Part shown: piece by piece, positions 8,367 through 42,502 of the stretch | Layout: each line of letters begins with the position of its first letter | Numbering within the stretch: the stretch's first letter is position 1 | Origin: Methanobacteriota archaeon | Lineage (GTDB): Archaea; Thermoplasmatota; E2; DHVEG-1 | Direction: 5' to 3' | DNA length: 64,000 bases | Assembly (NCBI GenBank): GCA_043806635.1 | Contig: JAZDGT010000033.1 | Span: forward strand, 24,336-88,335 | Made by a program: the position numbers and the translations under genes | Notes under the pieces: model-generated | What the model was told of the DNA's origin: nothing | Databases searched by the model: none | What the model saw: the letters and a program-made list of their open reading frames with translations, nothing else

Positions 8367-8437
8367 CAGCCCCGGGCGGATTTGAACCGCCGACGTTGGC
8401 TCCAAAGGCCAAAATGTTGCCACTACACCACGGGGCT
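8367..8437 (-). tRNA. tRNA-Gln (anticodon UUG)
   Basis: Reverse complement folds as a cloverleaf. Acceptor AGCCCCG/CGGGGCT with G73. Anticodon arm TTGGC-cTTTGga-GCCAA. T-loop GTTCAAATC. Confidence 0.8.
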
Positions 8438-8535
8438 ACATGCGCATACCGGGAATCTCTGAATTTATTTAAGAGTATGCTTTTTCTTTTCTCCTTATTC
8501 AGCAGGGTATCATATGAACAAATTTTTTCAGGAAA

Positions 8536-10236
8536 TCATGTACTCTTTTTTTGTTGCTGTTGTTGTATTTTCGCCCAGGTATCCCGCAGTTCAACGGTTC
8601 TGTTCAGAATCATCTTCTTATCGGTGGTGTGTGGGTCGACACAGAAATACCCGAGGCGTTCAAACTGGAATCGATCAAAATGTTTTAGCGTACGAACCAC
8701 CGGTTCTACCTTGCAGGACTGAATGATTGTAAGAGAATGCGGGTTGAGGAACTCTTTAAAATCCTTGTCTTTCTGTCCCGCGGGATCCTGAACCGTAAAG
8801 AGTCTATCGTAGAGGCGCACCTCAGCATACTGTGCATGCGGAGCGGATACCCAATGTATCGTTGATTTCACCTTCCGTCCATCTGGTGCGTATCCGCCTT
8901 TTGTTGCTGGGTCATAGGTGCATCGTAGTTCAACGATCTCCCCGTTTTTCTTGATAACGTCGTTGCATCGGATAAAATAGGCGTACCTGAGCCGGACCTC
9001 ACGACCCGGGGCAAGACGATAAAACTTGTTCGGCGGGTTCTCCATGAAATCATCCTGCTCAATATACAAAATTTTAGAAAACGGGACTTTACGTGATCCC
9101 ATCGTTGGATCCTCAGGGTTATTCACTGCTTCTATCTCCTCTGTTTGGTCTTCTGGGTAGTTCTTTACTACTATCTTTAGTGGATGGAGTACACCCATGT
9201 ACCGTGGGGATGTTTTATTCAGATCCTCTCGTATGCAATATTCAAGGAAATCAAAATCCACTATACTGTTGATTTTTGCGACACCAATACGTTTACAGAA
9301 ACCCCTGATCGCGGATGGTGAATACCCGCGGCGGCGCATCCCACTAATCGTCGGCAGTCGAGGATCATCCCATCCGTTCACATGTTTCCCTTCTACTAGC
9401 TGCAACAGCATCCGTTTACTCATCACTGTAAACGTTAGATTCAGGCGGGCGAACTCGATCTGCTGCGGATGATACACCCCGAGTTCATCAAGGAACCAAT
9501 CATATAACGGTCGATGATTCTCAAACTCAAGCGTGCAAATCGAATGCGTAATCCCCTCAACTGAATCCTCAAGCCCATGCGCCCAGTCATACATAGGGTA
9601 GATGCACCAGGTGTCTCCTGTTCGGTGATGACTGGCGTGGAGACTTCGATACATGACGGGGTCTCGCATGTTCAGATTCGGATGTGCCATGTCGATTTTT
9701 GCTCGGAGTACTTTTTCTCCGTCAGCGTACTCGCCGTTTTTCATCCGCTGAAACAAATCCCGGTTTTCTTCAACGGGTCGATCGCGATAGGGGCTGTTTT
9801 TACCTGGTTTCGTTAACGTCCCTCGATTCGTAGTGATTTCTTCGGCGGTTTGATCATCCACGTAGGCTTTCCCTTTTTTCACGAGGTCAATCGCGTAATC
9901 GTACATTTGTTGGAAATAATCTGATGCGAAAAACAGTCGATCCTCCCAGTCGAACCCGAGCCATTTCACATTCTCGATAATTGATTTGACGTATTCCTGT
10001 TCCTCTTTCGCAGGGTTGGTATCATCGAATCGAAGGTTGCATAATCCCCTGTACTCCTCTGCGATACCGAAATTCAGACAAATCGATTTCGCATGACCAA
10101 TATGGAGATACCCGTTTGGCTCTGGAGGAAATCGCGTGTGAACCTGGCCTTTATATTTCTTTGTTTTCAGGTCTTCATCGATAATCTCTCGAATAAAATC
10201 TTTTGTGACACTCTCAGATGTTTCCATGTTTATCAA
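8536..10236 (-). CDS. glnS: Glutaminyl-tRNA synthetase, class I, bacterial type
   Basis: HIGH motif (YLHIGHAKS), KMSKS variant (VMSKR), full-length colinearity with bacterial GlnRS including the C-terminal anticodon-binding beta-barrels (…[12 protein letters not shown]). 566 aa. Confidence 0.9.
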
Positions 10237-10282
10237 CTCTTCTTCCTCACCTTATTTGATTATTTCTAGGAGGATTTAGAGA

Positions 10283-10354
10283 CAGCCCCGACCAGATTCG
10301 AACTGGTGACTAGAGATCCAGAGTCTCTTATGTTAACCGCTACACTACGGGGCT
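10283..10354 (-). tRNA. tRNA-Gln (anticodon CUG)
   Basis: Reverse complement: AGCCCCG acceptor, D-arm GTGTAGCGGTTAAC, anticodon arm AGAGA-cTCTGga-TCTCT, T-arm ACCAG-TTCGAAT-CTGGT, G73. Confidence 0.8.
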
Positions 10355-10469: not shown

Positions 10470-10892
10470 TTAGGATTTTGAATCAATGGTTTGATAGGAT
10501 GTGGATATCGTGACTGATGGTTTCAGCATAGCTGAGACTGGGCAATATTTTTGTTGTGATAATTCGATTGCTCGTTCCAGATGGGTGGTATTGAGTTGAT
10601 GGCCAGCGAAGATGTAGGTGAGATGAATTTTTGTGAATACTTTTGGGTGAGTCTCGGATCGTTCTGCGGTGATCTGAATCTCAAAACCTTGAAGCTGAAC
10701 ACGTTTTTTTGTTTAAATCGAGATGACGTCACTCCCGGTGCAGCTTCCTAACGCTATTAATACGAGTTCCATGGGGTGTGCAGCAGTGTCTGTACCGGAA
10801 ACCTCTTTTGGTCCATCAATTACTACAGTATAGTTGCTTTCTGATGTCCCGATGAACAAGAGTCCTTTGACGTGTTTTACTGTTGCTTTCAT
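10470..10892 (-). pseudogene. OsmC/Ohr-family peroxiredoxin-like gene interrupted by a frameshift in an A7/T7 homopolymer
   Basis: The N-terminal 59 aa (MKATVKHVKG…HPMELVLIALGSCTGSDVISI) stop at 10713-10715. The OsmC C-terminus (KKRVQLQGFEIQITAERSETHPKVFTKIHLTY…LERAIELSQQKYCPVSAMLK) continues in another frame, ending at 10470. The shift lies at the T7 run 10704-10710. The six-frame ORF 10523..10732 is the third, wrong frame. Confidence 0.7.
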
Positions 10893-11073: not shown

Positions 11074-11146
11074 GGGCCAGTGGTCTAGTGGTTATGACGT
11101 CGCGCTTACAACGCGGAGATCGCCTGTTCAATTCCGGCCTGGCCCA
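11074..11146 (+). tRNA. tRNA-Val (anticodon UAC)
   Basis: Acceptor GGGCCAG/CTGGCCC with A73. Anticodon arm TCGCG-cTTACaa-CGCGG. T-loop TTCAATT. Confidence 0.85.
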
Positions 11147-11204
11147 CTAAGCTCTCTTGGAGGGTTTTCAGTCGAAACCAAGGTATTTTGGCTGTTTGTT
11201 GGTT

Positions 11205-12506
11205 TTAGCGTGTTTTCCTCTTCGAATTTTTTATTGTATTGGAATTGTTTTTTAAAAGTAACCATTTCCATACTGGTACTACATGAATTATTTTTTTATC
11301 TAAGTTGATTTCTTCTTCCTGATCCTGAGTCAATAATAACCCTTCTTTAAGACGAAACGTTGTTAATGCTTCAAGCAAACCTTTCAGTTCTCGATCTCGA
11401 TTTGTTTCATCGAGTACATAGCAGACTTGTATAGCATAAGTTATTTTTGTTCCATTTTTGATGATAAAATCACACTGCTGGGATCCACTGAAATAATACA
11501 CTTCTTGCTTTCTTCTTCGGAGATCAATGAATACAAGATTTTCTAACAACCTCCCTTTGTTAAGAGAGATATTCATCCCGCAAACCTGATGAAACACAGG
11601 ATCGACTACATAGATCTTTTTCGGTGCATTTAGTTGCTTCCTGAGGGAATAATCAAATTTGTGCACTTCAAAAAAGAGATATGAATTGTGGAGGTATGAG
11701 ATGTACTCTTTGACGGTAATAGCATTTGAAAGTTTTAATGTATTTTTTAAGGAATTATACGTGTACGGAGATGCCATATTGGTTACTAACAGATTGACTA
11801 ACTCTCGTAGCACATGCTGTTGCTTGATTAGATATCGAGCAACGATATCGCGGTAAAGGATATTTTCATAGATGGTCTTCACATATTCGATATCGTTGTT
11901 CTTTAGATACTCAGGGATTCCTCCTTTATTCAGATATTCGTTGAATTGACGAACGAGTAATGCTTTTTTTTCTGTGAGGTAAAACCAATTTTTCTGAGGC
12001 GTTATTTGGTGGAGTTGAAGAAATTCATGGAATGAAAAGGGATATACTTCAAATGATTTGTATCGACCGGTTAGTCGTGTTCCAAATTCGTAGCTAAGCA
12101 GTGAAGCATTTGAACCAGTTATAACAATTTTTTTTCCTTGATCTTGGAGTCGTCTTACAAAAGTCTCGAATTGAGGTATGTTTTGAATTTCGTCAAAGAA
12201 GTATATGGAGGCATTTCTGTATATTTCTAGTAATACTTCGTGCAGGGATTCAAATTCAGAAGCTTGAAAATCAAGAAAACGTTCATCTTCGAAATTTACG
12301 TAACAACTTGGTTTGACCTTTTGCATGAGTTGACGGAGAAGGGTCGACTTTCCACTTCGACGCAAGCCCGTAAGAATAAGAATTCTATTATCTGAGGACC
12401 AAGGAAGTATCTCATGGATAAGTTCTCGAGGTATTGTACGTTCTTCTCTCATGAGGGTTATTTGTTGTTGTATGAGTATTTGACGAAGGATTTCTTTAGA
12501 TATCAT
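11205..12506 (-). CDS. AAA+ ATPase (archaeal ATPase / AAA_14 + DUF4143-like)
   Basis: Walker A GLRRSGKST, Walker B-like IYFFDEIQ, C-terminal DUF4143-like region. 433 aa. Confidence 0.75.
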   Translation of the reverse strand: MISKEILRQILIQQQITLMREERTIPRELIHEILPWSSDNRILILTGLRRSGKSTLLRQLMQKVKPSCYVNFEDERFLDFQASEFESLHEVLLEIYRNASIYFFDEIQNIPQFETFVRRLQDQGKKIVITGSNASLLSYEFGTRLTGRYKSFEVYPFSFHEFLQLHQITPQKNWFYLTEKKALLVRQFNEYLNKGGIPEYLKNNDIEYVKTIYENILYRDIVARYLIKQQHVLRELVNLLVTNMASPYTYNSLKNTLKLSNAITVKEYISYLHNSYLFFEVHKFDYSLRKQLNAPKKIYVVDPVFHQVCGMNISLNKGRLLENLVFIDLRRRKQEVYYFSGSQQCDFIIKNGTKITYAIQVCYVLDETNRDRELKGLLEALTTFRLKEGLLLTQDQEEEINLDKKIIHVVPVWKWLLLKNNSNTIKNSKRKTR

Positions 12507-12629
12507 ACTAAATGGTAATTAGTAAAAATATTTAAATGTTTTCATTACTAATTAGTATAAATTCTAAGATATTCATTTGTAAATATTTGGTTTAACAGAC
12601 CAAATTATAGCATTTTTTTCTGGTTTGCT

Positions 12630-12701
12630 GGGCCAAATGCAAGCGGGAAAAGAAAAATACTTACAACGCGGAGATTGCCTGTTCAATTCCGGCTTGGCCC
12701 A
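12630..12701 (+). repeat. Degenerate tRNA-Val copy: intact 3' half (anticodon loop to 3' end, 2 mismatches) with a 5' acceptor strand carrying a compensatory change
   Basis: cttacaacgcggagattgcctgttcaattccggcttggccca matches tRNA-Val positions 32-73. 5' gggccaa pairs with 3' ttggccc, but no D-arm or 5' anticodon stem. Confidence 0.6.
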
Positions 12702-12790
12702 TTTTCATTTCCTCCTAATGTGAGGTAAACGAATTTTATTAGAAGGATTTATAAGAACTTTATGAATTATTTATTGAGGAGGAGAACCGG

Positions 12791-14173
12791 ATGGAAAACG
12801 AAAAAATTATGATTGGAGGTATTGTTTTTTTACTGATTGTTTCAATGTGCGGATGTCTTTCTTCCAACAATGTGAACGCTGAATACCTTCGAACGAAAAT
12901 TATTGAAAAATTCAATAATGTTCAGAGTTATACATATCGTTCATCCGGTAATATGACGAGGCCGGGGTCAGATTTACCAGGTTATGGGCTATATTCTTTG
13001 AACGGTAACGTTAATGTTCTTCAAAAGCATGTAAAATCCTATATGGACATTGAACTTACAAATGAATTGATTGAATATTATTTGAAGCATAATATCACCA
13101 TTACTAATGAGACGTTCAATTTTTTTCATCAATATTTTTATTATGAAAATGAAACGCTGTATAAATCCTTTGATAATCGTACTTGGGATGGGACCCAACA
13201 CGGGTCGTTAAATTGGTATGCCTTTGCGTTCTTAGATCGACAATTTCGTTTTATTTTAGAAAATGCGACGTTATCAAAGTTAGCCGATGAGGCCATCGAC
13301 GGCTGTACATGTTACACATTACAGGTCACCCCAAAACTAGAAAATCTTACTCTGAAACCTGTATATATGGATTTATTATTCCCGCTCCAAAATGAGAGGA
13401 GGAGTATATACTTTCTCTTTGAACAAAATTATAGCACCGATATAAAATATTGGATTGACAAAGATACTTATCTTATAAAAAAAATGTGTATCAAAGCAAG
13501 TAACAATTTTACATATTCCTACAATTCAAGTAAGAATATAACCCGACATTCATTGTCAAATTATGAGACGGAAATCTTATTTTATAATTACGACCAAGAA
13601 GATTCTGTTGAGTCACCCTGGCAAATATATATACAACAAGCCAGCGAATTACTCAATTATCTAAATTACTCTAATACGAGATTTGGTTTTGGTATGAATC
13701 TACCCTATATTTGGATAGTCGATGAAAATAGTATGTACGGTTCGAGTGTTGGTCTGGTTCCTACGTTTTCGTTACGAGATCAATCAATAACCAATCTCTC
13801 CTTAATAATCGGCCCGCCCTCACGTTCAAGCGGGAATCTGAGCGAAGAAGTTCAGAATAAATTAATGGATATTGGTGAAAAATTAAATGATACTACCCAT
13901 TCACAATATTATATAAATTATACCTTAGATAGAAACGGACCTCTAAATGTTAACGGGATGAATGCATACGAATTTGTTACATCGATGACCACGAACAACA
14001 TCACAATAAAAACAAGGGATCTGTTCATAGAAAAAGATGAGAGATTATTTGATATTCTATTTTATGGTTACGAGGAACTATATAATGAATATCTTCCAGA
14101 AATTAATGATTGCATCAACACCTCATTTACAATAATTGCTCCATACTTTGAAATCTATGAAATAAATCTATGA
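12791..14173 (+). CDS. Secreted or membrane-anchored hypothetical protein, very rich in N-glycosylation sequons
   Basis: N-terminal hydrophobic segment with CGC. More than 20 NxS/T sequons. 460 aa with no catalytic motif. Confidence 0.5.
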   Translation: MENEKIMIGGIVFLLIVSMCGCLSSNNVNAEYLRTKIIEKFNNVQSYTYRSSGNMTRPGSDLPGYGLYSLNGNVNVLQKHVKSYMDIELTNELIEYYLKHNITITNETFNFFHQYFYYENETLYKSFDNRTWDGTQHGSLNWYAFAFLDRQFRFILENATLSKLADEAIDGCTCYTLQVTPKLENLTLKPVYMDLLFPLQNERRSIYFLFEQNYSTDIKYWIDKDTYLIKKMCIKASNNFTYSYNSSKNITRHSLSNYETEILFYNYDQEDSVESPWQIYIQQASELLNYLNYSNTRFGFGMNLPYIWIVDENSMYGSSVGLVPTFSLRDQSITNLSLIIGPPSRSSGNLSEEVQNKLMDIGEKLNDTTHSQYYINYTLDRNGPLNVNGMNAYEFVTSMTTNNITIKTRDLFIEKDERLFDILFYGYEELYNEYLPEINDCINTSFTIIAPYFEIYEINL

Positions 14174-14254
14174 AATATGAGTACTAATACAGACATTATT
14201 TTACTTAAGAAAAAAATTGAATTTCATATTTCCTTATGTCGACCTATGTGTAAA

Positions 14255-14323
14255 AACAAGGTTAGGTTGACGTATCCCCAGATAGGAAGCGGGTAATTCC
14301 GGCCTGGCCCACTAACCTCTCTC
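14255..14323 (+). repeat. Cassette-boundary repeat: 57-nt element ending in a copy of the tRNA-Val 3' end plus 3' flank
   Basis: 14296-14323 (aattccggcctggcccactaacctctct) matches the tRNA-Val 3' end and downstream flank with 1 mismatch. 14255-14316 is about 75% identical to 15975-16032. Confidence 0.55.
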
Positions 14324-14345
14324 GAAAGATTTGATGTTAAATCAT

Positions 14346-14768
14346 CTATCGTTGTCTATATAAAAAATAATTCATCTCCTTTGTGTTGAGAATATGAACT
14401 ATTGATTGTCGTCTAAGTTTTTTATCATCAGACCATAAAAAACTCGTAGGATAAGCTAGAGCGCAAGCAATGAAAAGCACATCGTCAGGATCGATATCTT
14501 TAACGATCTCATATGCTTGTTTTTTATATGGAATAAGCGAACTTGTTGGAACGATTAATACTTTTCGTAAGAGATACGAAAGTAATGAGTTAAATTCCTT
14601 TGAAGTCATCTTTGATTTTTTCAGAAGTTCTCTTTTATGTTTCTCCATTTCTTCAAAGATATACGATGGAAAAAGAAAGGTTCCTTCATAATCTAAAATC
14701 AATCTTCTTGTTAGTGAATCTTTGATGAGTGCGGAAAAAAGAATGTTCGAATCAATAACGATATTCAA
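14346..14768 (-). CDS. vapC: PIN-domain ribonuclease toxin (VapC-like)
   Basis: N-terminal IVIDSN with acidic residues spaced as in PIN domains. 140 aa. 4-nt overlap with the upstream antitoxin ORF. Confidence 0.65.
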   Translation of the reverse strand: MNIVIDSNILFSALIKDSLTRRLILDYEGTFLFPSYIFEEMEKHKRELLKKSKMTSKEFNSLLSYLLRKVLIVPTSSLIPYKKQAYEIVKDIDPDDVLFIACALAYPTSFLWSDDKKLRRQSIVHILNTKEMNYFLYRQR

Positions 14769-14995
14769 CTAAGGAACCTCTTAGATGCTGATGCTTTTAT
14801 TTTTTTATTAAATGTTTTTACATCATCTTCAGTGAGTTTGCTTTTTCGTGCAAGTTTCTCAGCCATTTGAAGAAATTCTAATTTTTCGATAATGGCTTTT
14901 CGTGCGATTTCACTCCATTTCACTTCAGAGAAATGTTTCATTTGTTTATGAATAGTATCTGGTACTGAAAGAGTTATATTTCCCATACATATCAC
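14765..14995 (-). CDS. vapB: Antitoxin (VapB-like, putative ribbon-helix-helix)
   Basis: 76-aa ORF overlapping the PIN gene start. ITLSVPDTIHKQMK strand-helix pattern. Confidence 0.5.
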   Translation of the reverse strand: MICMGNITLSVPDTIHKQMKHFSEVKWSEIARKAIIEKLEFLQMAEKLARKSKLTEDDVKTFNKKIKASASKRFLS

Positions 14996-15353
14996 TACAA
15001 ATAAATATGTGTGTTCACATATTTAAACATTTCTTATTGAAGCTCTTTATCTTACAATTCGTCTATAATAGTTTTATAAGATTGTTGAAAAATCAATAAC
15101 TAACATCGGAAAGATATTTAGATATAAAGAGGGAGCATACCATATCTATGCCGGCAAACAGATCGCAAATGCAGCACATTTTGAAAATATAGAAAAAGTA
15201 AGAGTAGATTATTATCCTATTGATAAAAAGATCGTGATTAGAAAAATAACGGAATTATAAAATTATCATAAAACTTTAAAATTTTTAATTTTTAATAACA
15301 TAAAAAAGTAACATGTTAGAAAAATATAAATTCTAATAACAGATAGTTTTTTA

Positions 15354-15974
15354 TTGAAAGGATGGGAAAATACGAACTGGAAAGAATTCTTTAAACCAAA
15401 TATAAAAAAGATTCTATTTACTGCCGTATTTTTTTTCTTAATTGGAATTTGGTTTGTTTTTCCAATATTGAATATTTTGTTACCCAATAGCGAGGGTTCA
15501 TTTGGGATACGAATTTTAGTTTTAATAATATCATTCATCCCTCCTGTATTTCTTGCATATATATTAGGTAGTTTTTATTTGATATTAGCTGAAATGATTA
15601 CCAAAAAAGTATCATTGTTAAAATTCAATGAAAAAAAAATTGCCTTAGGAATTGGTGTGTTTGTATTTGCTGTTTTTTTCCATGGCATAACGTATAGCTT
15701 GAATTTCCCGATCTTAAGAGTTATTGATTATATCCTTCTTCCATATATGTTGGTTACTGACATCTGGATGCGTTATGTGTCTCACCCGTATCTATATACT
15801 CTTCCTCCGGGAGCAGGTTTTGATATTACTTTTTCAATATCAGACATTATAATTTTAATACTATTTTTTGCCCTTAGTATCATTTATTGGTATGCAATAG
15901 GATGTGTAATTTTTTATTATTTTAAAAAATTCAAAAATAGAACTTTAAATGAAGATATGTCAACCAATAAGTAA
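15354..15974 (+). CDS. Polytopic membrane protein of unknown function
   Basis: 206 aa with about 5 hydrophobic helices. Confidence 0.45.
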   Translation: MKGWENTNWKEFFKPNIKKILFTAVFFFLIGIWFVFPILNILLPNSEGSFGIRILVLIISFIPPVFLAYILGSFYLILAEMITKKVSLLKFNEKKIALGIGVFVFAVFFHGITYSLNFPILRVIDYILLPYMLVTDIWMRYVSHPYLYTLPPGAGFDITFSISDIIILILFFALSIIYWYAIGCVIFYYFKKFKNRTLNEDMSTNK

Positions 15975-16032
15975 AAACAGGGGAAGGTTGACGCACCTCC
16001 AGATAGGAATAGAGCAATATCGGCCTGGCCCA
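15975..16032 (+). repeat. Cassette-boundary repeat (second copy of the 57-nt element, ending tcggcctggccca)
   Basis: Direct repeat of 14255-14316. Its 3' end matches the tRNA-Val acceptor/T-arm. Confidence 0.5.
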
Positions 16033-18623: not shown

Positions 18624-18696
18624 AGCCCCGTGGTGTAGCGGTCAATCATTCGGGATTCTGGATCCCGCGACAGTGGTTCGAATCCACTCGGGGCTA
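18624..18696 (+). tRNA. tRNA-Gln (anticodon CUG), canonical archaeal-type sequence
   Basis: AGCCCCGTGGTGTAGCGG… with anticodon arm CGGGA-tTCTGga-TCCCG, T-arm GGTTCGAATCC, acceptor CGGGGCT, A73. Confidence 0.85.
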
Positions 18697-32928: not shown

Positions 32929-34248
32929 TTATGTCCTCTGGTGATGAAGATGTGGAGCTGCAACGAACGTTAGTCCTCGCTCTGTAAGTGCGCGAGCGGT
33001 GTTATTGATTGCTTCATGTTTGTCAAGGTAGTTTCTTAGGAGATGAGGCATGAGTTTTTTTTCTTCGATTTCGTTTTTAGGTAGGAAATAGTCGAGGATG
33101 TCGGAGGGGTGTTCTCTTTTGCTGTCTATTTTGATTTCTCCTCCTTCGTGTTTGGCGCTCATATTTTTTACATGTGTTGCGAGTTCGAGGATTTCTTCAC
33201 GTCGGTCATAGGGTTGGACGACGATGCTTTTGTATGTTTCTAAGATATGGTGTTCAAACCGTACGTAGTCTTCTAACCCCAGAGAGTGTCGTATCTCGTT
33301 ACTGAGGTCGATGGTGGTGTTGTTGACTGAGTTTGAGAAGTTAAATCCTACGAGTGATGTAGAGCCGTCTTCTCGTGAGAAGAAGCGGGCGGCCATTAGC
33401 GTCCAGAATATGGCGTAGGGGTTGTCGTTTCCCATGTATACGGAGATTTTGAATTCTATGTTGATTTCGAGTTTGTGGAGGAGGTAGCCTAGGAAGATTG
33501 TTCCTGGGTTGATGTTGAGGACTTGTTTCACTCCGTAGTTGGTGTAGTAGTAGAGGAATTCGTCTACCCATTTGAGGGGGTAGTCATTTGGTTGGCCGAC
33601 TCCTCCGAAGTAGCCGGTTATGGTTTCTGGTCCGCCCAAGTGGACGTTGGAGCCGTCTGTTCCTCTGGTATCGAGGGTTTCACACCAGCTCGCTCCGATG
33701 ATTTGCATGGCTGCGGTCATGGCGAGGAGGTCGTCGTCTTCTTCTTGTTCTTTCATGCAGCGAACGCGGATGAAGCGACCGGGCATGAGTTCTCCGTTTT
33801 TTACTGCTTGTCGGGCTTGGGTCATAAAGAAAGGGAAGTATTGGCAGGCGCTGATTTCTAAGGTAACGGCAAAATCCTCGTTGAATTCCATGTCTTTGAT
33901 TTTATCGCCTAGGATTTTTCTGCGGTAGTCGTTTATGGTGATAAAGGCTTTTTTACCTCGTTGTTCTAGTAGCCATTGGAGATCGTTGTAGTAGGGTGAG
34001 TTTTTTTGTTTTAGTCGTGTCATGAGGTTTTCGATTTTTCCTGCTTCGTTGGCTTTTCGGTTGATTTCTTCAGGGCCGCCGTATTTGTCGATTATTGATA
34101 GGAATTTGTTTATGATTTTGTTGTCTGGGTGTGTTAAAAAAGAGTTTATTTCTTCAAGTCTTTTTTTTTCGATGGCTAGTTTGTTTCGGATATCCGTAGG
34201 CATGTTTTGTTCCTCCCCTTTTTTTATTTGTTTATGTCTGGGAAGCAA
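32929..34248 (-). CDS. Hypothetical conserved protein (439 aa), co-directional and tightly packed with hom, aor and the aminotransferase
   Basis: Stop-to-start spacing of 2 nt to hom. No recognisable motif. Confidence 0.45.
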   Translation of the reverse strand: MLPRHKQIKKGEEQNMPTDIRNKLAIEKKRLEEINSFLTHPDNKIINKFLSIIDKYGGPEEINRKANEAGKIENLMTRLKQKNSPYYNDLQWLLEQRGKKAFITINDYRRKILGDKIKDMEFNEDFAVTLEISACQYFPFFMTQARQAVKNGELMPGRFIRVRCMKEQEEDDDLLAMTAAMQIIGASWCETLDTRGTDGSNVHLGGPETITGYFGGVGQPNDYPLKWVDEFLYYYTNYGVKQVLNINPGTIFLGYLLHKLEINIEFKISVYMGNDNPYAIFWTLMAARFFSREDGSTSLVGFNFSNSVNNTTIDLSNEIRHSLGLEDYVRFEHHILETYKSIVVQPYDRREEILELATHVKNMSAKHEGGEIKIDSKREHPSDILDYFLPKNEIEEKKLMPHLLRNYLDKHEAINNTARALTERGLTFVAAPHLHHQRT

Positions 34249-34600
34249 ATCAGGCAGCGTTATAAATAATGTTTGGTTTTCCTGAAAAGTAGTTTGATTT
34301 TTGTGTCTGCACGTTAGAGTTCTATTTGTTGCTGTTGTTCTATATAAATTGTAAACATATTTTAATTTTTATGGAAATATTTAAATTAAAATGATGGATG
34401 CTTAAAGTAGAATGGGGGAGGAAAAATTTATATTAAAAAAAATGAGTTATTGAGAAAAAGTTTGGTATTAGGAATAGTAACACTGTTTGTTGAAATGAAT
34501 AGTGCATCGACCACAAGCAATGGTACCACTACCTTTGAAGGGTTTGTCAATAAAAATAATTATCTATAAAATTTGAAGTATCAAAAAATGAAAAAACTGC

Positions 34601-34745
34601 TCAACAGGTATAAAAACAAATTTTTTACCAGTAAAACGGAGTCGAAATCCCACTCCCCGCGCTAATTATTAGCACGGTTAGTTAACGGAAGGGAAATACA
34701 ATTTTTTTATAGTAAATTGACGCTCAAATCCCGACGGGATCATCC
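34601..34745 (+). repeat. Cassette-boundary repeat, copy b, fused to a 105-nt direct repeat of the tRNA-Ser 3' end and its downstream flank
   Basis: 34639-34745 is about 75-85% identical to 26631-26735 (ggagt(t)c(g/a)aaatc…ccccgcgctaattatta(g/a)cacggtta(g/t)ttaac…). The left arm 34601-34638 matches copies a, c and d. Confidence 0.6.
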
Positions 34746-35118
34746 GGTCATTTTTTCTCCTGTAGAAAAATTGTAAAAATGTAGTTTTCTTCTATAAAAG
34801 TGATGGAGGGGGCTTTGTCCCCGAAATGTAGCTATTCCCGATGATTTTAGAGGATATACATTTTGATGAGTATTAATTTTTTAGGTAATTTTTTCCAGGA
34901 GAAATCCTCCGAGATTATAACGAATATTTCCCTTTTAATTACCAAAATATGAGTTCAGTGAAAACACATCTGTTGGCCAGGGAAAAAAAGTTTTAAGGAT
35001 AATCCGCATAAGCGAAAGAAATATTATCGATGTTTCCTGCAACAGTTGACGGTTAAGAGGAGATTTGAATCACTGAGGAAATATCTGGAATTGGTTGTGA
35101 TTCTCGCTATGTTTTCAC

Positions 35119-35394
35119 TTAAATGTTTTTTGATCTGAGTTCATCTTGAATATTGCGAGCCCGTATTTTCCATATCACTATTACTATTTTTAAAACAGAT
35201 AAAATAAAAATAACTGTTGCTGCTATCACTATAAAATATTCTCTACGTATAAAGGCTAGGTAGAAAATACAGCTAATAATAACCAAAGTTATGAGAGATA
35301 TTGCTAATGTCGTCTTTTCCCTTATCGTAATCTGAGCTACCTCTTTTGAAGTCGTATCAGGGCTATATTTCAGCATAAAAATATCGAACAACAT
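35119..35394 (-). CDS. Small membrane protein (doubtful)
   Basis: 91-aa hydrophobic ORF, AT-rich region. Confidence 0.25.
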   Translation of the reverse strand: MLFDIFMLKYSPDTTSKEVAQITIREKTTLAISLITLVIISCIFYLAFIRREYFIVIAATVIFILSVLKIVIVIWKIRARNIQDELRSKNI

Positions 35395-35558
35395 CTTTCT
35401 TTGAGGTTATAAAATTTTCTCTTGCCATTCATTGTTCTGTGGTAATTTTTTAGATATTCAAATCAATAGGTTATCAACTTTGTTTGAAAAATCTGAGAAT
35501 AGTAACTTTTATATTACGGGTTAGATTTTCTGTCAAGGGAGCGTTATGAGGAGAAAAA

Positions 35559-36095
35559 ATGAGGCAAGATAAAAAAATACATAAAAGGGATATCGTGGTA
35601 CTTGTTTCAGCTCTCTTCATATTTTGGGTCTTGTTAACATCTGACTTTTCGTATTTTTCATTAATTTTGGGAATATGCGTTTCAATTTCGATTGGTTTGG
35701 TTTCTACGAAGTTTGTAATTACTGATGTAAAAGGTAGACGGAAAACATTCAAGGAATATTTCTTTGCGATTGAACATCTGGTTGGTATAGTTACCACTAC
35801 AATATTCAGGATAATTATTGCGAATGGCCAATTGATATATCAAGCAGTAACGCTGAAGATTTATCCAAAAATTGTAAGGGTTAAGGTTAATTTGAGATCC
35901 GATGTCGAACTGACAATACTCTCTCATTTGATAACACTCACACCCGGAACACTAGTTATCGATATACAAGATGCAGAAGACGGTGGTTCATACTTATATG
36001 TTCATTTTTCGTACTTGAAGGCTAAGCATTTGGGAAAATATATAGAAAATACCATTGGGCAATGGGATAAAATGATAGGAGCGTTATTTAAATGA
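35559..36095 (+). CDS. mrpE: Mrp/Mnh-type cation:proton antiporter subunit E
   Basis: First gene of an overlapping 8-ORF operon. N-terminal 2 TM and size typical of MrpE. Confidence 0.55.
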   Translation: MRQDKKIHKRDIVVLVSALFIFWVLLTSDFSYFSLILGICVSISIGLVSTKFVITDVKGRRKTFKEYFFAIEHLVGIVTTTIFRIIIANGQLIYQAVTLKIYPKIVRVKVNLRSDVELTILSHLITLTPGTLVIDIQDAEDGGSYLYVHFSYLKAKHLGKYIENTIGQWDKMIGALFK

Positions 36096-36343
36096 TGATC
36101 TTCGTGTATGTATTGTTAATCACTGCGATATTATCGTCGTATCGTTTATTTGTTGGACCGACTATACAAGATAGGCTTGTCTCTTTGAGCTGTGTTTCAG
36201 TGATACTTATCATTATTTTAATAATTCTTAGCATTCATTACAATCAAATGTTTTATCTTGATATAGCTATAACATTTCTTTTACTGGATTTTGTCGGCAC
36301 GATAGCATTCACAACGTATCTTGGACGAGAGGAGACAAAATGA
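36092..36343 (+). CDS. mrpF: Mrp antiporter subunit F
   Basis: 83 aa, 3 TM, ATGA overlap with mrpE. Confidence 0.55.
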   Translation: MMIFVYVLLITAILSSYRLFVGPTIQDRLVSLSCVSVILIIILIILSIHYNQMFYLDIAITFLLLDFVGTIAFTTYLGREETK

Positions 36344-36699
36344 ATATTATTTTGGAATTGCTGTCTCTTCTCTTTATATCTATAGGATGCTTTGTGATGT
36401 TATCTGCTGCTCTTGGTTTATATCGCTTTCCCGACATTTACATGCGTTTACACTCAAGTACAAAAGTGAACACTGGCGGTGCAATGACATTACTTTTTGG
36501 ATTAATGCTTAGAACTGGTATAAGCGCTCTGTCAGCAAAGATTTTTATTATAATAGCACTTATATTTATCCTGACTCCTGTTGTTTCTCATGCGATTGCT
36601 CGATCTGCGCATTTACAAAGTAAAACACCGATAATTTCTTTTGAAGCACATCCGAAGAAAAAATATGAGTATCATGATTTCTTTAGGAGAAAACAATGA
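36340..36699 (+). CDS. mrpG: Mrp antiporter subunit G
   Basis: MnhG signature LGLYRFPDIYMRLHSSTKVNTGG. Confidence 0.75.
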   Translation: MNIILELLSLLFISIGCFVMLSAALGLYRFPDIYMRLHSSTKVNTGGAMTLLFGLMLRTGISALSAKIFIIIALIFILTPVVSHAIARSAHLQSKTPIISFEAHPKKKYEYHDFFRRKQ

Positions 36700-36926
36700 T
36701 TGAACAAGTTCTTTTGATTTCCTTGGTAATCTTTTCGATTCTTGTTGTAGTGGAAAAACAATTATTGAGATCAGTAGTATTCCTGGCCTCAAGTACTGTA
36801 CTGCTTGTTGTACTATTGTTTCTTTTACAGGCACCTGATGTTGCGATAACAATGGCTGTGGTTGGTACTGGCGCAACAACCATCCTTTATCTCACAGTGA
36901 TTAAGAAAGTAGGTGGATTAAAATGA
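36696..36926 (+). CDS. Small Mrp membrane subunit (MrpB-N/DUF4040-like)
   Basis: 76 aa, 2-3 TM, overlapping stop/start in the operon. Confidence 0.4.
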   Translation: MIEQVLLISLVIFSILVVVEKQLLRSVVFLASSTVLLVVLLFLLQAPDVAITMAVVGTGATTILYLTVIKKVGGLK

Positions 36927-37192
36927 AAATGGATATAGTGGGGAAGTTTGCGGTGGCTTGCATCCTATCACTTTTTGGAATAATCATTATTTCATCTACG
37001 ATGCTTACATATTCCACCACCTTAACTTCAGAGATATCGGAATATTGTCTAGAAAATTTGTTCCTTACCGGTGCAATAAATGCTGTCTGCGCGATTTTAT
37101 TGGATTTTAGAGCATATGACACTCTAGGGGAGATTTTGATCATATTTGTTACTATTTCTGGGGTTATGCTGCTGGCAGGGAGGCGAAGATGA
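36923..37192 (+). CDS. Small Mrp membrane subunit
   Basis: 89 aa, hydrophobic, in-operon. Confidence 0.4.
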   Translation: MKMDIVGKFAVACILSLFGIIIISSTMLTYSTTLTSEISEYCLENLFLTGAINAVCAILLDFRAYDTLGEILIIFVTISGVMLLAGRRR

Positions 37193-37572
37193 CTTCCAGA
37201 ATCGTTAAAACAGCAGCAAGAGCACTTTTCCCGTTTATATTGCTGTTAGGGATTTATATTATCTTTTATGGCCATTTATCACCCGGTGGAGGCTTTCAGG
37301 GTGGTGTCATTTTAGCAATGGCAGTACTATTAGTTATTATAGTATATGGGGGAAGCAGAGTTCAAAAATTTATTCCATATCTCTCTTTTGTAGAGATTGC
37401 TGGTGTAACTTTATTCATTATTGTTGGAATATCGGGTATTGTCAGTGGAAAACAATTTTTAACAAATCTCGGTACGATCCCTTTACTGAACATTGTAATT
37501 GGTTTAAAGGTATTTGCGGGTTTAGTTTTAATGTATATATTTCTCATTAGATGGGAGTTGAAAAATGATTAA
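37189..37572 (+). CDS. mrpB: Mrp antiporter subunit B-like
   Basis: 127 aa, 4 TM, position preceding the mrpC-like gene. Confidence 0.5.
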   Translation: MTSRIVKTAARALFPFILLLGIYIIFYGHLSPGGGFQGGVILAMAVLLVIIVYGGSRVQKFIPYLSFVEIAGVTLFIIVGISGIVSGKQFLTNLGTIPLLNIVIGLKVFAGLVLMYIFLIRWELKND

Positions 37573-37888
37573 TGGATTTAACATAGGGATCATTCTTTTT
37601 TTGATAGGTTTGTATGGTATTATCACCAATAAAAACGTAATTAAAATAATTATGTCAATGGGCATAATGGGAAATGGTGTTGTGTTATTTTTCATCTCAT
37701 TAGGATATGTTGTTGACAGCGCAGCACCAATCCTGACATCGGGAGTTGAAAACATTGTTGATCCATTACCTCAGGCGCTCATGCTTACTATGATTGTAAT
37801 AAATCTGTGCATGACTGCACTAGCTTTAACTATTGTCGTCTGGCTTTATCATGAATTTGGCACCTTAGATTTGGGAGAGATGAGATGA
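37565..37888 (+). CDS. mrpC: Mrp antiporter subunit C (NuoK-like)
   Basis: 107 aa, 3 TM, NuoK/MnhC-like. Confidence 0.6.
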   Translation: MINGFNIGIILFLIGLYGIITNKNVIKIIMSMGIMGNGVVLFFISLGYVVDSAAPILTSGVENIVDPLPQALMLTMIVINLCMTALALTIVVWLYHEFGTLDLGEMR

Positions 37889-39546
37889 TAGAACATCTTC
37901 CAATATTTTTGTTAATAACCCCGCTACTATCGGCATTATGTGTTGCTTTAATTTCCTTGGTTTCAAAAACAGAATGGATTCAAAAAACCATAGCATTTAT
38001 CGGGTTGTCTCTCCCATTTTTTTATTTGACATTTCTGTTTCAAGAATTATCTAAAGGAGTAATAGAATATGATATGGGGGGATGGGTTAAGCCATATGCC
38101 GTAACATTAGTCGTAGATGAATTGGCATTTACCCTAGCACTCATCACCTCAATTATCACATTCTTGTGTTTTATTTATTCTATAAAATATATGAGAGGAA
38201 CGGATAGCAAATTCTATTTTTTCTTTCTCCTAATGGTCACTGGTTTATATGGCATCTTCCTGACTGGTGATATTTTTAATCTCTATGTTTTTTTTGAGCT
38301 TACCGTCATTTGCAGTTATATCCTTATAACATTTGGTGATAAGAAAACATCGTTAAAAGCTTCTTTCAAATATCTTATACTGGGGAGTATAGCATCCTTC
38401 TTTTTTTTGCTAGGGATAGGATTGCTGTATATTAAAACAGGTTTGCTAAATATTGAATATCTATCAATGCATATTCATAAAATTGACACTCAAACGCAGA
38501 TGGTTATATTTTCATTGTTTTTAGGAGCTATAGGTATTAAAGCTGCAATAATACCGTTTCATACATGGTTGGTAAGTGCACATTCAACGGCGCCCTCGCC
38601 AATTTCCGCTATTTTATCAGGCATTACTGTAAAAACCGGCATTTACATTTTTATAAGAGTTTTTGCTCTCGGTTTTACGTTACAAAACCTGAATGAAATT
38701 ATAATGGTCTTTGGTGCGATAACCGCATTGGGCGGAGTTATAGGTGCTTTGGTTGAGTGGGACATCAAACGGTTATTGGCGTACCATACAATTTCACAGA
38801 TAGGCTTTATCGTCGTAGGCATTGGGACATTTTCAACTATAGGTGTAGCTGGTGGACTATATCATATTGTGAATCATGCTATCTTCAAAGGTTTATTGTT
38901 TTTATGTGCAGGCGCGATAATTTACAGAACTGGTACTAAAGATATTAGAGAACATGGTATAGGAAAAACCATGCCTGTTACTCTGGTAACGTATATAATT
39001 GCAGCATTAGCTATCTCTGGTATTACACCAATTAATGGCGCTGTCAGCAAATCAATGATAGAATCATCTGTATATGATTACCCTATAATATGGCTGATTT
39101 TAGTTTTCGCTACTATAGGGACTATTACCACGTTTTCCAAGATATTATATTATTCCTTCATCAAATCTGCAAAAAAAGATAAAGAGACATCAAAATATCA
39201 TGAGGTTCCATTCTCAATGCAACTATCCATGATTGTTTTAGCGTTCTTATGTATTCTCCTAGGCGTTCTTCCAAATTTATGGTTAAACAATCTAATATTA
39301 CCAGCAACAGCATCTATTGTGGGAGCGTATAACAATATACAAATCAGTTTGTTTGAACCTTTCTCGATTTTTAAAGAATGGCTAATTGTTGCACTAGGCC
39401 TCCTCCTTCTCAAGGTTATTATAGTACGATCAAAAGACATTGATAGACTAAGGAGATTAATCTCAAAATTCAATTTGAATATATGCATATTCTTGATGAT
39501 TATTACATTGATCCTGGTGTTTATTGTTCTCGAGGTGTTCAATTAG
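37885..39546 (+). CDS. mrpD: Mrp antiporter subunit D (NuoL/M/N-type antiporter-like large subunit)
   Basis: 553 aa, about 14 TM. Conserved antiporter-module residues in broken helices (e.g. HTWLVSAHSTAPSP…). Confidence 0.8.
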   Translation: MIEHLPIFLLITPLLSALCVALISLVSKTEWIQKTIAFIGLSLPFFYLTFLFQELSKGVIEYDMGGWVKPYAVTLVVDELAFTLALITSIITFLCFIYSIKYMRGTDSKFYFFFLLMVTGLYGIFLTGDIFNLYVFFELTVICSYILITFGDKKTSLKASFKYLILGSIASFFFLLGIGLLYIKTGLLNIEYLSMHIHKIDTQTQMVIFSLFLGAIGIKAAIIPFHTWLVSAHSTAPSPISAILSGITVKTGIYIFIRVFALGFTLQNLNEIIMVFGAITALGGVIGALVEWDIKRLLAYHTISQIGFIVVGIGTFSTIGVAGGLYHIVNHAIFKGLLFLCAGAIIYRTGTKDIREHGIGKTMPVTLVTYIIAALAISGITPINGAVSKSMIESSVYDYPIIWLILVFATIGTITTFSKILYYSFIKSAKKDKETSKYHEVPFSMQLSMIVLAFLCILLGVLPNLWLNNLILPATASIVGAYNNIQISLFEPFSIFKEWLIVALGLLLLKVIIVRSKDIDRLRRLISKFNLNICIFLMIITLILVFIVLEVFN

Positions 39547-39875
39547 TCATCATATTATGATGAAATTACTAATCAGCGACTGAAAAGTGACACTACCAAA
39601 CCAACCAATCTGATTACCTATCTGATACATATCGATATCGTATTTCTCCATCCCACAGATCCTATCATTTTAAAGGAGTAGAATTAGTTTTGGGGATTTT
39701 ACTCTGGTTCAGTACCCACTCCAGCGGCTTTCGGTAATGGGGGCTTTGAAGATTCGGTAACCAAATCCCATCAGGGAGTACTATCACCAATGGTGAAAAG
39801 CCTTTCACCCATGAACATTTTAGTAGTAGCAGGTATCCTCGATGCAAGCATCTTACATCAATAGATAATATTATT

Positions 39876-39942
39876 GTTCAACAGATATGATACCATCAAA
39901 TGTGTTAACAAATACGAGTCCGAATCTCTCCCCCCGCGCACT
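39876..39942 (+). repeat. Cassette-boundary repeat, copy c
   Basis: ttgttcaacagatatgataccatcaaatgtgttaacaaatacgagtccgaatctctccccccgcgcac. Confidence 0.6.
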
Positions 39943-40221
39943 CTTTTTTTACCAGTAGATACGTAACAAAATCTCATTCTTAACATACGTTTTACCCAAG
40001 AACGCGAAAGAAATGGAGTTTATTAAGGGGTACGCTATGTAGGGAGTACGCTCGCAAGTACAGGATTGAATCATCAGGTGATATAAATGGCTACAAAATT
40101 GAAACGACTGGAAAGGAAGCATAAAAAAAACAAAAGGAAACGCAGAATGGCAAGATGAACGGGGAAAGTCGGAGAGAAAAAGTAGACTGATTCCATTTCT
40201 ACACTATTACTCCCACGTCCC

Positions 40222-41433
40222 TCATAACTTTTCGTGTTTTTTGTTCCACTCGTATATCTTTTCTCTCTCTTTAAGCTGTTTTTTCAATCTCTCAACATCG
40301 ATACCATTGTAAACATCTATTGTTTTTCCTGCAACGTTATCCCAAGTAAAAAGTTCTATTTCCTGTTTTCCGTTTTCCGCTAGTGTTTTTCTTAAAGATT
40401 CATATCGTAGTAATGATACGATCTTGCTTGCTATCTCGTCAGAATCCCAGAAATCAACCTTTATACAGTTTTTGAAAGTCTCGCATACACCAGCGGTTTT
40501 AGAAGCAATCGTTGGCGTACCAGCAGAAATAGCCTCAAGAGCCGTGATACCAAAGGGCTCACTCATACTAGGCATAACGTACACACTAGAAATTCCATAA
40601 ATATGTTTAACTTCCTCTTCAGTTAAACGTCCTGTGAAAATAACTCGGTTTGAAATACCCAGGTCTACGGCCTGATTAATCAAACGTGGTAGCATATCCC
40701 CTGCGCCTGCAACAACAAAACACACATCAGGTTCATAATCCAATACCTTTCTAGCAGCTTTCAAGAAAAACTCGGCTCCTTTTTGGATTGTGAGACGACC
40801 TAAAAACAAAACGATTTCTTGTTTTTTGCCTTCAGGAATAGGGTACACAGCGTTATGTACAACACTGATTATATCGGGATTTATACCATATTTTTCAACG
40901 ATCACACGTTTGGTGAAATGACTCACAGCAATTATTCTATCTGCTTTTTCCATACCTTTTCTTTCTAAATCAATAAACCATTGATTAGGATGAAGCCAGC
41001 CACTTCGGTCATATTCAGTAGAATGAATCGTAAGAACCATGGGAACGCCCATTTCTTCTTTTAAAATCGTAGCTGCTTCCATTGTGAGCCAATCATGAGC
41101 ATGAATAAAATCGAATTTACCTTCAGCTTTTGCAATTGCTTTAACTTTTGCAACAACAAGTTGGTTATATCTATGAACTGCTTCAAAAAAATTACCAGCT
41201 AATGCTTTATCTTCTGGCCGATCATAGGGGAAAATCTCTGTTTCTCCAACTTCTTTTATCAAGAGATTTGGTTGGTTACTATTCGCTGATTGTTTTGTTT
41301 TAGGCATAAAAAAGTATACTTTCACGTTCTTATCAGCTAGACTTCGGGTGAGTCCCTCGCAATGCGTAGCAAGACCGCCCGCTTTGAACGGTGGATATTC
41401 CCAGCCAATCATTGCTATTCTCATATCTATCAT
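40222..41433 (-). CDS. Glycosyltransferase family 4 (GT-B, retaining)
   Basis: EX7E motif region (EPFGITALEAISAGTP). 403 aa. Confidence 0.8.
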   Translation of the reverse strand: MIDMRIAMIGWEYPPFKAGGLATHCEGLTRSLADKNVKVYFFMPKTKQSANSNQPNLLIKEVGETEIFPYDRPEDKALAGNFFEAVHRYNQLVVAKVKAIAKAEGKFDFIHAHDWLTMEAATILKEEMGVPMVLTIHSTEYDRSGWLHPNQWFIDLERKGMEKADRIIAVSHFTKRVIVEKYGINPDIISVVHNAVYPIPEGKKQEIVLFLGRLTIQKGAEFFLKAARKVLDYEPDVCFVVAGAGDMLPRLINQAVDLGISNRVIFTGRLTEEEVKHIYGISSVYVMPSMSEPFGITALEAISAGTPTIASKTAGVCETFKNCIKVDFWDSDEIASKIVSLLRYESLRKTLAENGKQEIELFTWDNVAGKTIDVYNGIDVERLKKQLKEREKIYEWNKKHEKL

Positions 41434-42115: not shown

Positions 42116-42121
42116 AATAAT

Positions 42122-42397: not shown

Positions 42398-42502
42398 AAT
42401 AAGATATGAAACCCCTTAGGGTTTTTATCATGATTTCATTTATACATTCCTGAAATTTTGAGATTGACAACATCCACTTTCATATCAAAAAAATAAAAAA
42501 AC

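Follow-up and report, generated by a model that had tools for sequence, protein, structure and literature searches.

How could an archaeon come to charge its glutamine tRNAs with a glutaminyl-tRNA synthetase (GlnRS)? According to reviews of 2021 and 2022, all known archaea lack this enzyme and form Gln-tRNAGln with a glutamyl-tRNA synthetase of the non-discriminating kind (ND-GluRS) and the amidotransferase GatDE (PMC9499178, PMC8007984); another 2022 paper, citing Di Giulio 2020, attributes the indirect pathway to "almost all archaea" (PMC8762117). The question is raised by a 64-kb stretch of contig JAZDGT010000033.1, from a metagenome-assembled genome (MAG), hereafter called the window, to which all coordinates refer unless another locus is named. 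In this window, a gene for a bacterial-type GlnRS (glnS) lies between two tRNA-Gln genes, with anticodons CUG and UUG; the three genes are referred to below as the module. The module is conserved in the clade to which the window belongs. Both of its tRNAs carry G at the discriminator position 73, and a third, remote tRNA-Gln of the window carries A73. The A73 of archaeal tRNA-Gln, credited to Marck and Grosjean (2002) in a passage of PMC9499178, as opposed to the bacterial G73, is among the differences proposed as a barrier to the transfer of GlnRS (PMC9499178). In the literature searched, no description of an archaeal GlnRS or of an archaeal tRNA-Gln with G73 was found. An archaeal GlnRS is nevertheless already present in the databases, under an automatic name (MFH1101265.1), though the reviews deny its existence.

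A bacterial-type GlnRS encoded by an archaeon

The initial annotation had recognized in the open reading frame (ORF) 8536..10236 (minus strand) a full-length class I GlnRS, apparently colinear with the E. coli enzyme. The ORF exists at these coordinates and begins mechanically with TTG at 10236, but the likely start of glnS is the ATG at 10227, giving a gene at 8536..10227 (minus strand) and a protein of 563 amino acids, as in the GenBank entry MFH1101265.1, which matches the window GlnRS at 100% and was named by PGAP. With the NCBIfam equivalog TIGR00440 (glnS, EC 6.1.1.18), for which the cut-off is 425.8, the protein scores 736.8 bits, whereas it does not reach the cut-offs of the glutamyl-tRNA synthetase (GluRS) models (gltX_arch, 351.9 vs 401.75; gltX_bact, 74 vs 290). 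It also matches the Pfam families PF00749, PF03950, and PF20974, each over its full length. The domains are the catalytic one and the two beta-barrel anticodon-binding ones, without the N-terminal domain of eukaryotic GlnRS and without a YqeY domain. Residues 8-557 align in a single stretch with residues 4-551 of E. coli GlnRS (1QRS), which bears out the presumed colinearity, and the HIGH (LHIGHAKS), VMSKR (the KMSKS signature), and C-terminal RDTWAK motifs are all found. As a product name, GenBank's "glutamine--tRNA ligase/YqeY domain fusion protein" misleads: the match to NF011291, the GlnRS-YqeY fusion model, covers only profile positions 8-566 of 769, the protein ends just past RDTWAK, and the YqeY domain is absent. 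The predicted activity is the ATP-dependent formation of Gln-tRNAGln.

The host is an archaeon. The same window encodes the RFC large subunit, the archaeosine synthase ArcS, and the ribosomal proteins L3, L4, L2, S3, S4e, L32e, and S5, which match archaeal equivalogs; the presence of a bacterial-type GlnRS inside an archaeal genome is thereby confirmed. In the deposited record, the source is called "Methanobacteriota archaeon"; its GlnRS and its FtsY have their closest relatives among sequences labelled Thermoplasmatota, Thermoplasmata, or Thermoplasmatales, and the MAG is of Thermoplasmatota type.

The flanking tRNAs and the discriminator base

Five tRNA genes are present in the window according to both ARAGORN and the Rfam model RF00005, and three of them are tRNA-Gln. 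Two lie on the same strand as glnS, where the initial annotation had placed them: tRNA-Gln(CUG) upstream, at 10283..10354 (minus strand; Rfam 63.9 bits), and tRNA-Gln(UUG) downstream, at 8367..8437 (minus strand; 63.2 bits). The third, a remote tRNA-Gln(CUG) that had also been proposed, is confirmed at 18624..18696 (plus strand; 57.8 bits) and appears to be of the ancestral archaeal type. The minimum-energy fold of the module tRNA-Gln(CUG) is a perfect cloverleaf; those of the UUG tRNA and of the remote tRNA are not. Since non-cloverleaf minimum-energy folds are common for unmodified tRNA sequences, the covariance-model scores were taken as decisive.

The three tRNAs have the same acceptor stem, AGCCCCG/CGGGGCU, with A1:U72, G2:C71, and C3:G70. 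Elsewhere the module and remote copies differ, as had been claimed, in the D loop (one extra base in the remote copy), the anticodon stem, and the T stem. When identity elements are compared, the most telling difference is the discriminator, which is G73 in both module tRNAs (positions 10283 for CUG and 8367 for UUG) and A73 in the remote copy (position 18696). Of the two classical features of archaeal tRNA-Gln, A1:U72 is found in all three copies of the window and A73 only in the remote one. The module tRNA-Gln(CUG) also has G10 and the anticodon loop CUCUGGA. In E. coli, glutamine identity depends on the discriminator, the pairs 1:72, 3:70, and 10:25, and U35/G36 (PMC9976931). This set is matched in part by the module tRNAs, at G73, G2:C71, G10, U35, G36, and in the weakness of the first pair, which is inverted (A1:U72).

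The arrangement is constant among relatives. Seven long contigs (L081-L087, up to 961 kb) have the order tRNA-Gln(CUG), glnS, tRNA-Gln(UUG); their UUG tRNA is identical in sequence, and their CUG tRNA also has G73. The 3' half of this UUG tRNA served as the query for a scan of metagenomes, A or G being allowed at position 73. All 41 contigs holding this half-tRNA have G73 and none has A73. Directly upstream of the UUG tRNA, glnS is found in 35 of the 35 loci that extend far enough, the remaining 6 ending too early, where either the contig or the retrieved stretch stops. At the other end, a CUG tRNA with G73 is present in the 18 loci (18/18) that reach past the glnS start. In the D stem of the CUG tRNA, the pair 13:22 is U:A in one and C:G in the other of window and relatives (U:A to C:G), a compensatory change that argues for selection on the structure of this tRNA. 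These data support the view that glnS and the two tRNA-Gln genes form a conserved three-gene unit in the window clade.

It had been proposed that this unit was self-contained and possibly acquired as such. Its arrangement is indeed kept, but its tRNAs did not come with the enzyme. In the loci sampled, the bacterial tRNA-Gln genes that adjoin bacterial glnS have U1:A72 and unrelated stems. Because the module tRNAs have A1:U72 and an acceptor stem identical to that of the remote copy, they are archaeal tRNAs and not imports that accompanied glnS.

Possible adaptation on the side of the tRNA or of the enzyme

The pairing of a bacterial-type enzyme with archaeal tRNAs raises the question of which partner was modified. 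Arg30 of the window GlnRS lies within the conserved HTRFPPEP, and L136, Y211, C229, Q255, R341, R402, R410, Q517, and R520 (E. coli numbering) are invariant in 38 sequences of the window clade; these ten residues are the ones that we take to be responsible for glutamine selection or tRNA contact in the E. coli enzyme. A scan of the archaeal group for fixed positions that bacteria seldom share gave a single one, A510L. As it also occurs in three Planctomycetota, this sole candidate for an enzyme-side adaptation across the whole archaeal group was dropped. The archaeal GlnRS is thus essentially unmodified, with almost no archaea-specific substitutions, and this suggests that in the window clade the fit was made on the tRNA side.

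Bacteria offer another look at whether the enzyme and position 73 are linked. In the bacterial sample, GlnRS sequences with P136 and V/I235, found in Bacteroidota, adjoin tRNAs with A73, and those with L136 adjoin tRNAs with G73. This pattern fits a functional connection of the Leu136-type enzyme with G73. In crystal structures, Leu136 opens the weak 1:72 pair, and G73 then stabilizes the folded-back 3' end. Three bacterial loci with the Bacteroidota-type enzyme (L049, L054, and L057) have adjoining tRNA-Gln genes with A73 and without G3:C70, which suggests a second bacterial mode of recognition in GlnRS of this type.

Origin and inheritance of glnS

A protein search returned more than 100 relatives of the window GlnRS at 81-83% identity, from many metagenomes, several of them labelled Thermoplasmatota. 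The FtsY relatives of the window show 70-83% identity, so that the divergence of glnS is about that of a vertically inherited core gene. Comparison with the host genes points in the same direction: the GC content at third codon positions of glnS is 0.495 (host genes, 0.43 ± 0.07), and its codon-usage distance to the pooled host genes is 0.081, among the lowest in the window (mean, 0.145). The codon usage of the gene is host-like. The window and the long relative contigs also have neighbors in common, a beta-eliminating lyase and a molybdopterin oxidoreductase. Taken together, the identity of the relatives, the comparable divergence of FtsY, the host-like codon usage, and the common neighbors support an old transfer, followed by vertical inheritance in a large Thermoplasmatota radiation.

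The best matches listed among species-representative genomes are bacterial, Planctomycetota coming first with about 70% identity and E. coli-like enzymes reaching about 60%. Neighbor-joining analysis recovers the window clade as monophyletic in 100/100 bootstrap replicates. Further archaeal lineages emerged from another search, for which a divergent Thermoplasmata GlnRS (L067) served as the query; one of them (L090) is carried by a 4.2-Mb chromosome (CP070672.1) where the neighbors of glnS are clearly archaeal. In the best tree, 23 of the 23 archaeal-labelled sequences fall into one group of 96, and none of the 83 bacterial-labelled sequences lies inside it. These trees were built without a eukaryotic or GluRS outgroup, and for the direction of transfer we rely on the accepted view of a eukaryotic origin of GlnRS with later spread to bacteria. 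The simplest reading of these trees, though not a proven one, is that glnS was acquired once, long ago, from a donor resembling Planctomycetota. As to the horizontal acquisition suggested initially, the bacterial origin of the gene is thus supported, but the transfer is old, and the novelty of a recent event is lost.

Putative promoters and transcription

Comparison of the upstream regions of the window and its relatives revealed boxes resembling the transcription factor B recognition element (BRE) and the TATA box. A putative archaeal promoter, P1 (10398..10411, minus strand), combines a BRE-like, purine-rich AAAGG with the TATA box TTATATATA and precedes the mature 5' end of tRNA-Gln(CUG) by about 48 nt; the distance varies from 40 to 48 nt across relatives and window. 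The P1 element reads GAAAAGTTATATATGA in relatives and AAAGGTTATATATAG in the window, and every distinct upstream sequence long enough to include it has kept it; in relatives and window alike, a purine-rich element followed by TTATATAT precedes the CUG tRNA. The spacer between this tRNA and glnS (10228..10282, minus strand) contains a Shine-Dalgarno-like GGTGAGG at 10251-10245, and a Shine-Dalgarno-like GTGAGG or GAGGAAGTGG is conserved in the corresponding spacers. Between this tRNA and the glnS start lie 19 to 55 nt overall and about 19 to 45 nt in relatives, most of which leave no space there for a promoter. Because a spacer of 19 nt cannot hold a separate TATA promoter, tRNA-Gln(CUG) and glnS are probably co-transcribed, the single transcript being then split by tRNA processing.

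Downstream, a second putative promoter, P2 (8463..8472, minus strand), consists of a TATA-like TTAAATAAAT within a conserved GCATAYNCTTAAATAAAATCAAAGATTCC. The P2 box CTTAAATAAAAT stands about 30 nt upstream of tRNA-Gln(UUG) and is kept in nearly all of about 30 distinct spacers between glnS and this tRNA, and a T-rich tract follows the tRNA gene. The locus would therefore comprise two transcription units, tRNA-Gln(CUG)-glnS and tRNA-Gln(UUG).

Decay of the classical tRNA-Gln in relatives

The remote tRNA-Gln(CUG) sits upstream of a block of genes for a metallophosphoesterase, prefoldin, FtsY, and a kinase that is conserved in relatives. The exact sequence of this tRNA gave no match in metagenomes, and the copy was instead traced by synteny with FtsY. 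At the matching position, an intact tRNA-Gln(CUG) with A73 is found in the window and in L095 (Rfam 59.1 bits). In L092 (8481-8553), the gene has a Gln-type body with an anticodon UUU, a U3:G70 pair, and a mismatch in the anticodon stem (41.7 bits). In L094, the 1.9-Mb chromosome CP070798.1, it has mismatches in the acceptor and T stems (31.8 bits, with a cut-off of 29). These two degraded copies fold no better than shuffled sequence. The classical A73 tRNA-Gln thus looks to be under relaxed selection in relatives, as a takeover by the module would predict. The UUU anticodon of the L092 copy corresponds to Lys, and this gene could be either a decaying pseudogene or an anticodon-shifted tRNA gene.

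Other archaeal GlnRS lineages

A tRNA-Gln gene is found within 0.5-3 kb of glnS in L067, L088, and L091, always with A73, and in L090, with anticodon UUG and G73. These linked tRNAs have a common body, (A/G)GAGACUYUGGAUCUCU and CCAGUUCRAAUCUGG, which is also that of the module tRNA-Gln(CUG) of the window and is absent from its remote copy. In the tree, the two lineages linked to G73 belong to one subgroup (58 sequences) and the two linked to A73 to another (20 sequences). The A73 subgroup is derived at C61F, F90A, T230S, and S320N, positions at which the G73 subgroup keeps the bacterial consensus. With four lineages of known tRNA state, this split is a lead and not a result.

Two repeat structures were observed near glnS in these lineages. 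At L067:4756-5053, 1 kb upstream of glnS, a unit of about 225 bp containing the tRNA-Gln(CUG) with A73 is tandemly duplicated; the second copy keeps about 56 nt of the tRNA start and then diverges, as a truncated pseudo-copy. Upstream of glnS in the deep-branching Thermoplasmatota lineage L137 (8800-9560), arrayed repeat units CGGTCCAGTCGCATC...CAGATGCG...CCTTACCTCG with internal inverted symmetry lie beside a tRNA-Gly(GCC).

A proposed route to direct charging and its alternatives

From these observations, the following route can be proposed. An ancestor within Thermoplasmatota would have taken up a bacterial glnS, most similar to that of Planctomycetota, which was then inherited vertically. 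A BRE/TATA promoter would drive a tRNA-Gln(CUG)-glnS co-transcript from which RNase P and RNase Z release the tRNA, leaving a glnS mRNA with a short leader and a Shine-Dalgarno-like sequence; a second TATA promoter would drive tRNA-Gln(UUG). Both module tRNAs would derive from archaeal tRNA-Gln, their discriminator having been switched from A73 to G73. GlnRS would then charge both directly with glutamine, covering the codons CAG and CAA, and the ND-GluRS/GatDE route would become dispensable. The decay of the A73 tRNA-Gln(CUG) in some relatives fits such a dispensable indirect route. We consider this account as a whole probable. The identity of the genes, the archaeal host, the conservation of the module, the G73/A73 split, the promoter-like boxes, and the decay of A73 copies are its observed components; enzymatic activity, co-transcription, an adaptive value of G73, and replacement of the indirect pathway are those that we infer.

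Several observations weigh against this account. The module tRNAs depart from the E. coli identity set at C3:G70 and G37/A38 (G3:C70 and A37/U38 in E. coli). Asp235 of E. coli GlnRS, which reads the 3:70 pair, is an Asn in the window GlnRS, and this D235N was considered as an archaeal fit to C3:G70; the idea was dropped since N235 (in EFENHRP) also occurs in the nearest Planctomycetota GlnRS and is common to these relatives. In the L067/L088 and L091 lineages, glnS is accompanied by tRNAs with A73, so that G73 would not be an absolute requirement. In Bacteroidota, too, the tRNA-Gln genes that adjoin glnS have A73, there with a P136 enzyme in place of L136. No tRNA-Gln was found near glnS in L137. 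A group containing only archaeal GlnRS is recovered in 22/100 bootstrap replicates, three Planctomycetota-labelled sequences joining it in 58/100, and a single acquisition is weakly supported. For the L092 and L094 genomes, in which A73 copies have decayed, carriage of glnS is not established, L092 being linked to the GlnRS contig L082 only through their common sample; no FtsY match was paired with a GlnRS match on one contig, so that the A73 copy and the module were not seen together among the relatives traced. Finally, the remote A73 copy is intact in the window itself, where the indirect route may persist.

This intact copy raises the possibility that two systems operate in parallel, GlnRS serving the G73 module tRNAs and ND-GluRS/GatDE serving the A73 tRNA-Gln, with G73 acting also as an insulator between them. 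In addition to the intact copies of the window and L095, it is in favor of such coexistence that, reportedly, GatDE recognizes A1:U72 together with the D loop (PMC9499178), features kept by the remote copy, and that a passage of PMC4206432 describes bacteria having both GlnRS and an amidotransferase. Against it stands the degradation, in L092 and L094, of the corresponding A73 copy. Moreover, the module tRNAs keep A1:U72, and GatDE would not obviously ignore them. As for the components of an indirect route, neither gatD, gatE, nor gltX was detected in the 64-kb window (Pfam or NCBIfam scans, about 50 of the 67 ORFs of at least 130 amino acids), nor was a tRNA-Gln(UUG) with A73 seen there. [quoted passage not shown] Parallel systems are, in our opinion, rather unlikely, and the evidence leans quite distinctly towards a module that replaces the indirect route, the replacement being still under way, over one that supplements it.

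Alternatively, G73 could act mainly as an anti-determinant against the archaeal, formerly non-discriminating GluRS of the host, as tRNA-Gln mis-glutamylated after the loss of GatDE would be toxic. That L067, L088, and L091 apparently manage with A73, so that GlnRS may not strictly need G73, and that the archaeal enzyme is without archaea-specific changes, are compatible with this idea. Against it, the discriminator belongs to the glutamine identity of E. coli, where mutations of identity elements mainly lower kcat (PMC9976931), and the pairing of L136 with G73 and of P136 with A73 in the bacterial loci sampled points to a connection of the enzyme with position 73. We regard a role confined mainly to GluRS rejection as improbable. 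An artefact, through contamination or chimeric assembly, or cargo carried by an integrated virus or element would account for the roughly 70% identity with Planctomycetota GlnRS among the matches listed, and an apparent island of integrated elements lies 1 kb away, at a tRNA-Val gene. Yet the same arrangement is found on at least 41 independent contigs from many metagenomes, with archaeal neighbors; archaeal A1:U72 tRNAs and BRE/TATA boxes flank glnS, whose codon usage is host-like; and neither an integrase nor direct repeats flank the module, att-like repeats bracketing 8.3-10.4 kb having been looked for and not found. In IMG/VR, no GlnRS of the clade and no module tRNA were found. Viral or mobile carriage was consequently rejected in view of the missing flanking repeats, the lack of an IMG/VR match, and the conserved chromosomal neighbors, and the artefact or mobile reading, including the contamination or chimera envisaged at the outset as a possible refutation, is already effectively refuted.

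Within the proposed acquisition and direct charging, a more specific version would make the switch from A73 to G73 in a duplicated tRNA-Gln the adaptive step that allowed GlnRS to take over, GatDE and the A73 tRNAs being now lost. This version is possible, but we hold it only tentatively and would not expect it to be correct in full. In a hypothesis of 2000, Tumbula, Soll and colleagues reportedly argued that the peculiarities of archaeal tRNA-Gln, and not a lack of opportunity, kept GlnRS out of Archaea. An adaptive takeover through G73 would be its natural confirmation, and the A73 sister lineages, with C61F, F90A, T230S, and S320N, would then represent a second, enzyme-side solution.

Whatever the exact role of G73, the standard explanation holds that an archaeal tRNA-Gln with A73 and A1:U72 is unusable by GlnRS, and this clade has changed one of the two named positions, 73. 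A bacterial GlnRS is stably fixed in widespread sediment and wetland Thermoplasmatota and is coupled there to two tRNAs of archaeal derivation. The clade provides a natural test of the reasons for which GlnRS was believed to be never used by archaea, and an old evolutionary argument becomes testable at the bench. In addition, the module provides a naturally evolved GlnRS/tRNA pair of mixed bacterial and archaeal character that may be useful for orthogonal translation. It can serve as a marker when glutamine decoding is annotated in archaeal MAGs, and it is a case in which an archaeal promoter apparently drives an aminoacyl-tRNA synthetase gene together with the tRNA of that enzyme.

Other features of the window

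Between the promoter of the CUG tRNA and a tRNA-Val(UAC) gene lies an OsmC/Ohr-like gene (10473-10891, minus strand), recognized by eye from its translation. It contains one in-frame TAA (...GSDVISI*TKKRV...) where a leucine codon (TTA) would be expected; the gene may be a pseudogene, or the stop may stem from a sequencing error or be a site of read-through. Beyond it, in the region 11074-16032, the 3' part of tRNA-Val(UAC) recurs downstream in two or three direct copies, with 95% and 87% identity. Repeats lie at 11105-11146, 12660-12701, and 14295-14332, and also at 14195-14311 and 15916-16032. They bracket segments of low GC content (0.28-0.35) that encode an AAA_14/DUF4143 ATPase, an unassigned protein of 460 amino acids, and a PIN-domain protein. 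This region looks like a series of tandem elements integrated at tRNA-Val(UAC); no integrase was seen in it. The distance from tRNA-Val to the tRNA-Gln position is 1.3-2.8 kb in L092 and L094 and 7.5 kb in the window.

A second stretch of low GC content (34000-44000; 0.33-0.37 vs about 0.45 elsewhere) encodes subunits of an Mrp antiporter (MnhE and MrpD-like), a GT4 glycosyltransferase, and CorA. It may be an acquired region or simply a cluster of genes for membrane proteins. Two ribosomal proteins have extra regions related to helix-hairpin-helix (HhH) domains: L32e (53953-54672, minus strand) has an additional N-terminal HhH-like region and matches the 238-residue model PRK12766, and S3 (59457-60329, minus strand) has a C-terminal extension of which residues 222-287 match HhH models of the RadA, RuvA, and NusA type.

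Comparison with known glutamine-charging systems

One reference is E. coli GlnRS (PDB 1GTS/1QTQ; TIGR00440). The window enzyme has the same architecture and is colinear with it over the full length, including HIGH, VMSKR, and the ten residues from R30 to R520, and the module tRNAs resemble E. coli tRNA-Gln in G73, a weak 1:72 pair, G2:C71, G10, and U35/G36. The host, in contrast, is an archaeon; the tRNAs have A1:U72 instead of U1:A72, C3:G70 instead of G3:C70, and G37/A38 instead of A37/U38; the enzyme has N235 in place of D235; and glnS stands between both isoacceptors, with promoter boxes of archaeal type. The GlnRS of Planctomycetota (Pirellulales L001 and Planctomycetota L006) is closer, with about 70% identity and the EFENHRP motif, including N235, in common. 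In several of the other bacterial loci sampled (L015, L020, L028, L031, L045, and L051), and in many unrelated bacteria in all, a tRNA-Gln(CUG) directly adjoins glnS, as it does in the module; however, glnS sandwiched between two isoacceptors was found in none of the 80 bacterial loci sampled, and the tRNAs there have U1:A72.

The archaeal indirect pathway (ND-GluRS and GatDE, as in the Methanothermobacter transamidosome) would lead to the same product, Gln-tRNAGln. The module tRNAs retain A1:U72 and an overall archaeal sequence, and the remote copy is of the classical type. The predicted charging differs in taking one step instead of two and in involving G73 tRNAs; the proteins of the indirect pathway are not found in the window, and the classical tRNA copy is decaying in some relatives. 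Further parallels are the other archaeal lineages (L067/L088, L090, L091, and L137), whose GlnRS belongs to the same bacterial-type group as that of the window and which, in four of five, have a tRNA-Gln of related body within 0.5-3 kb of glnS. There, a single tRNA is present, the linkage is looser, with the tRNA on the opposite strand or separated by intervening genes, and the discriminator is A73 in two of them. The fixed order tRNA-Gln(CUG), glnS, tRNA-Gln(UUG), with G73 in both tRNAs, is found in the window clade only.

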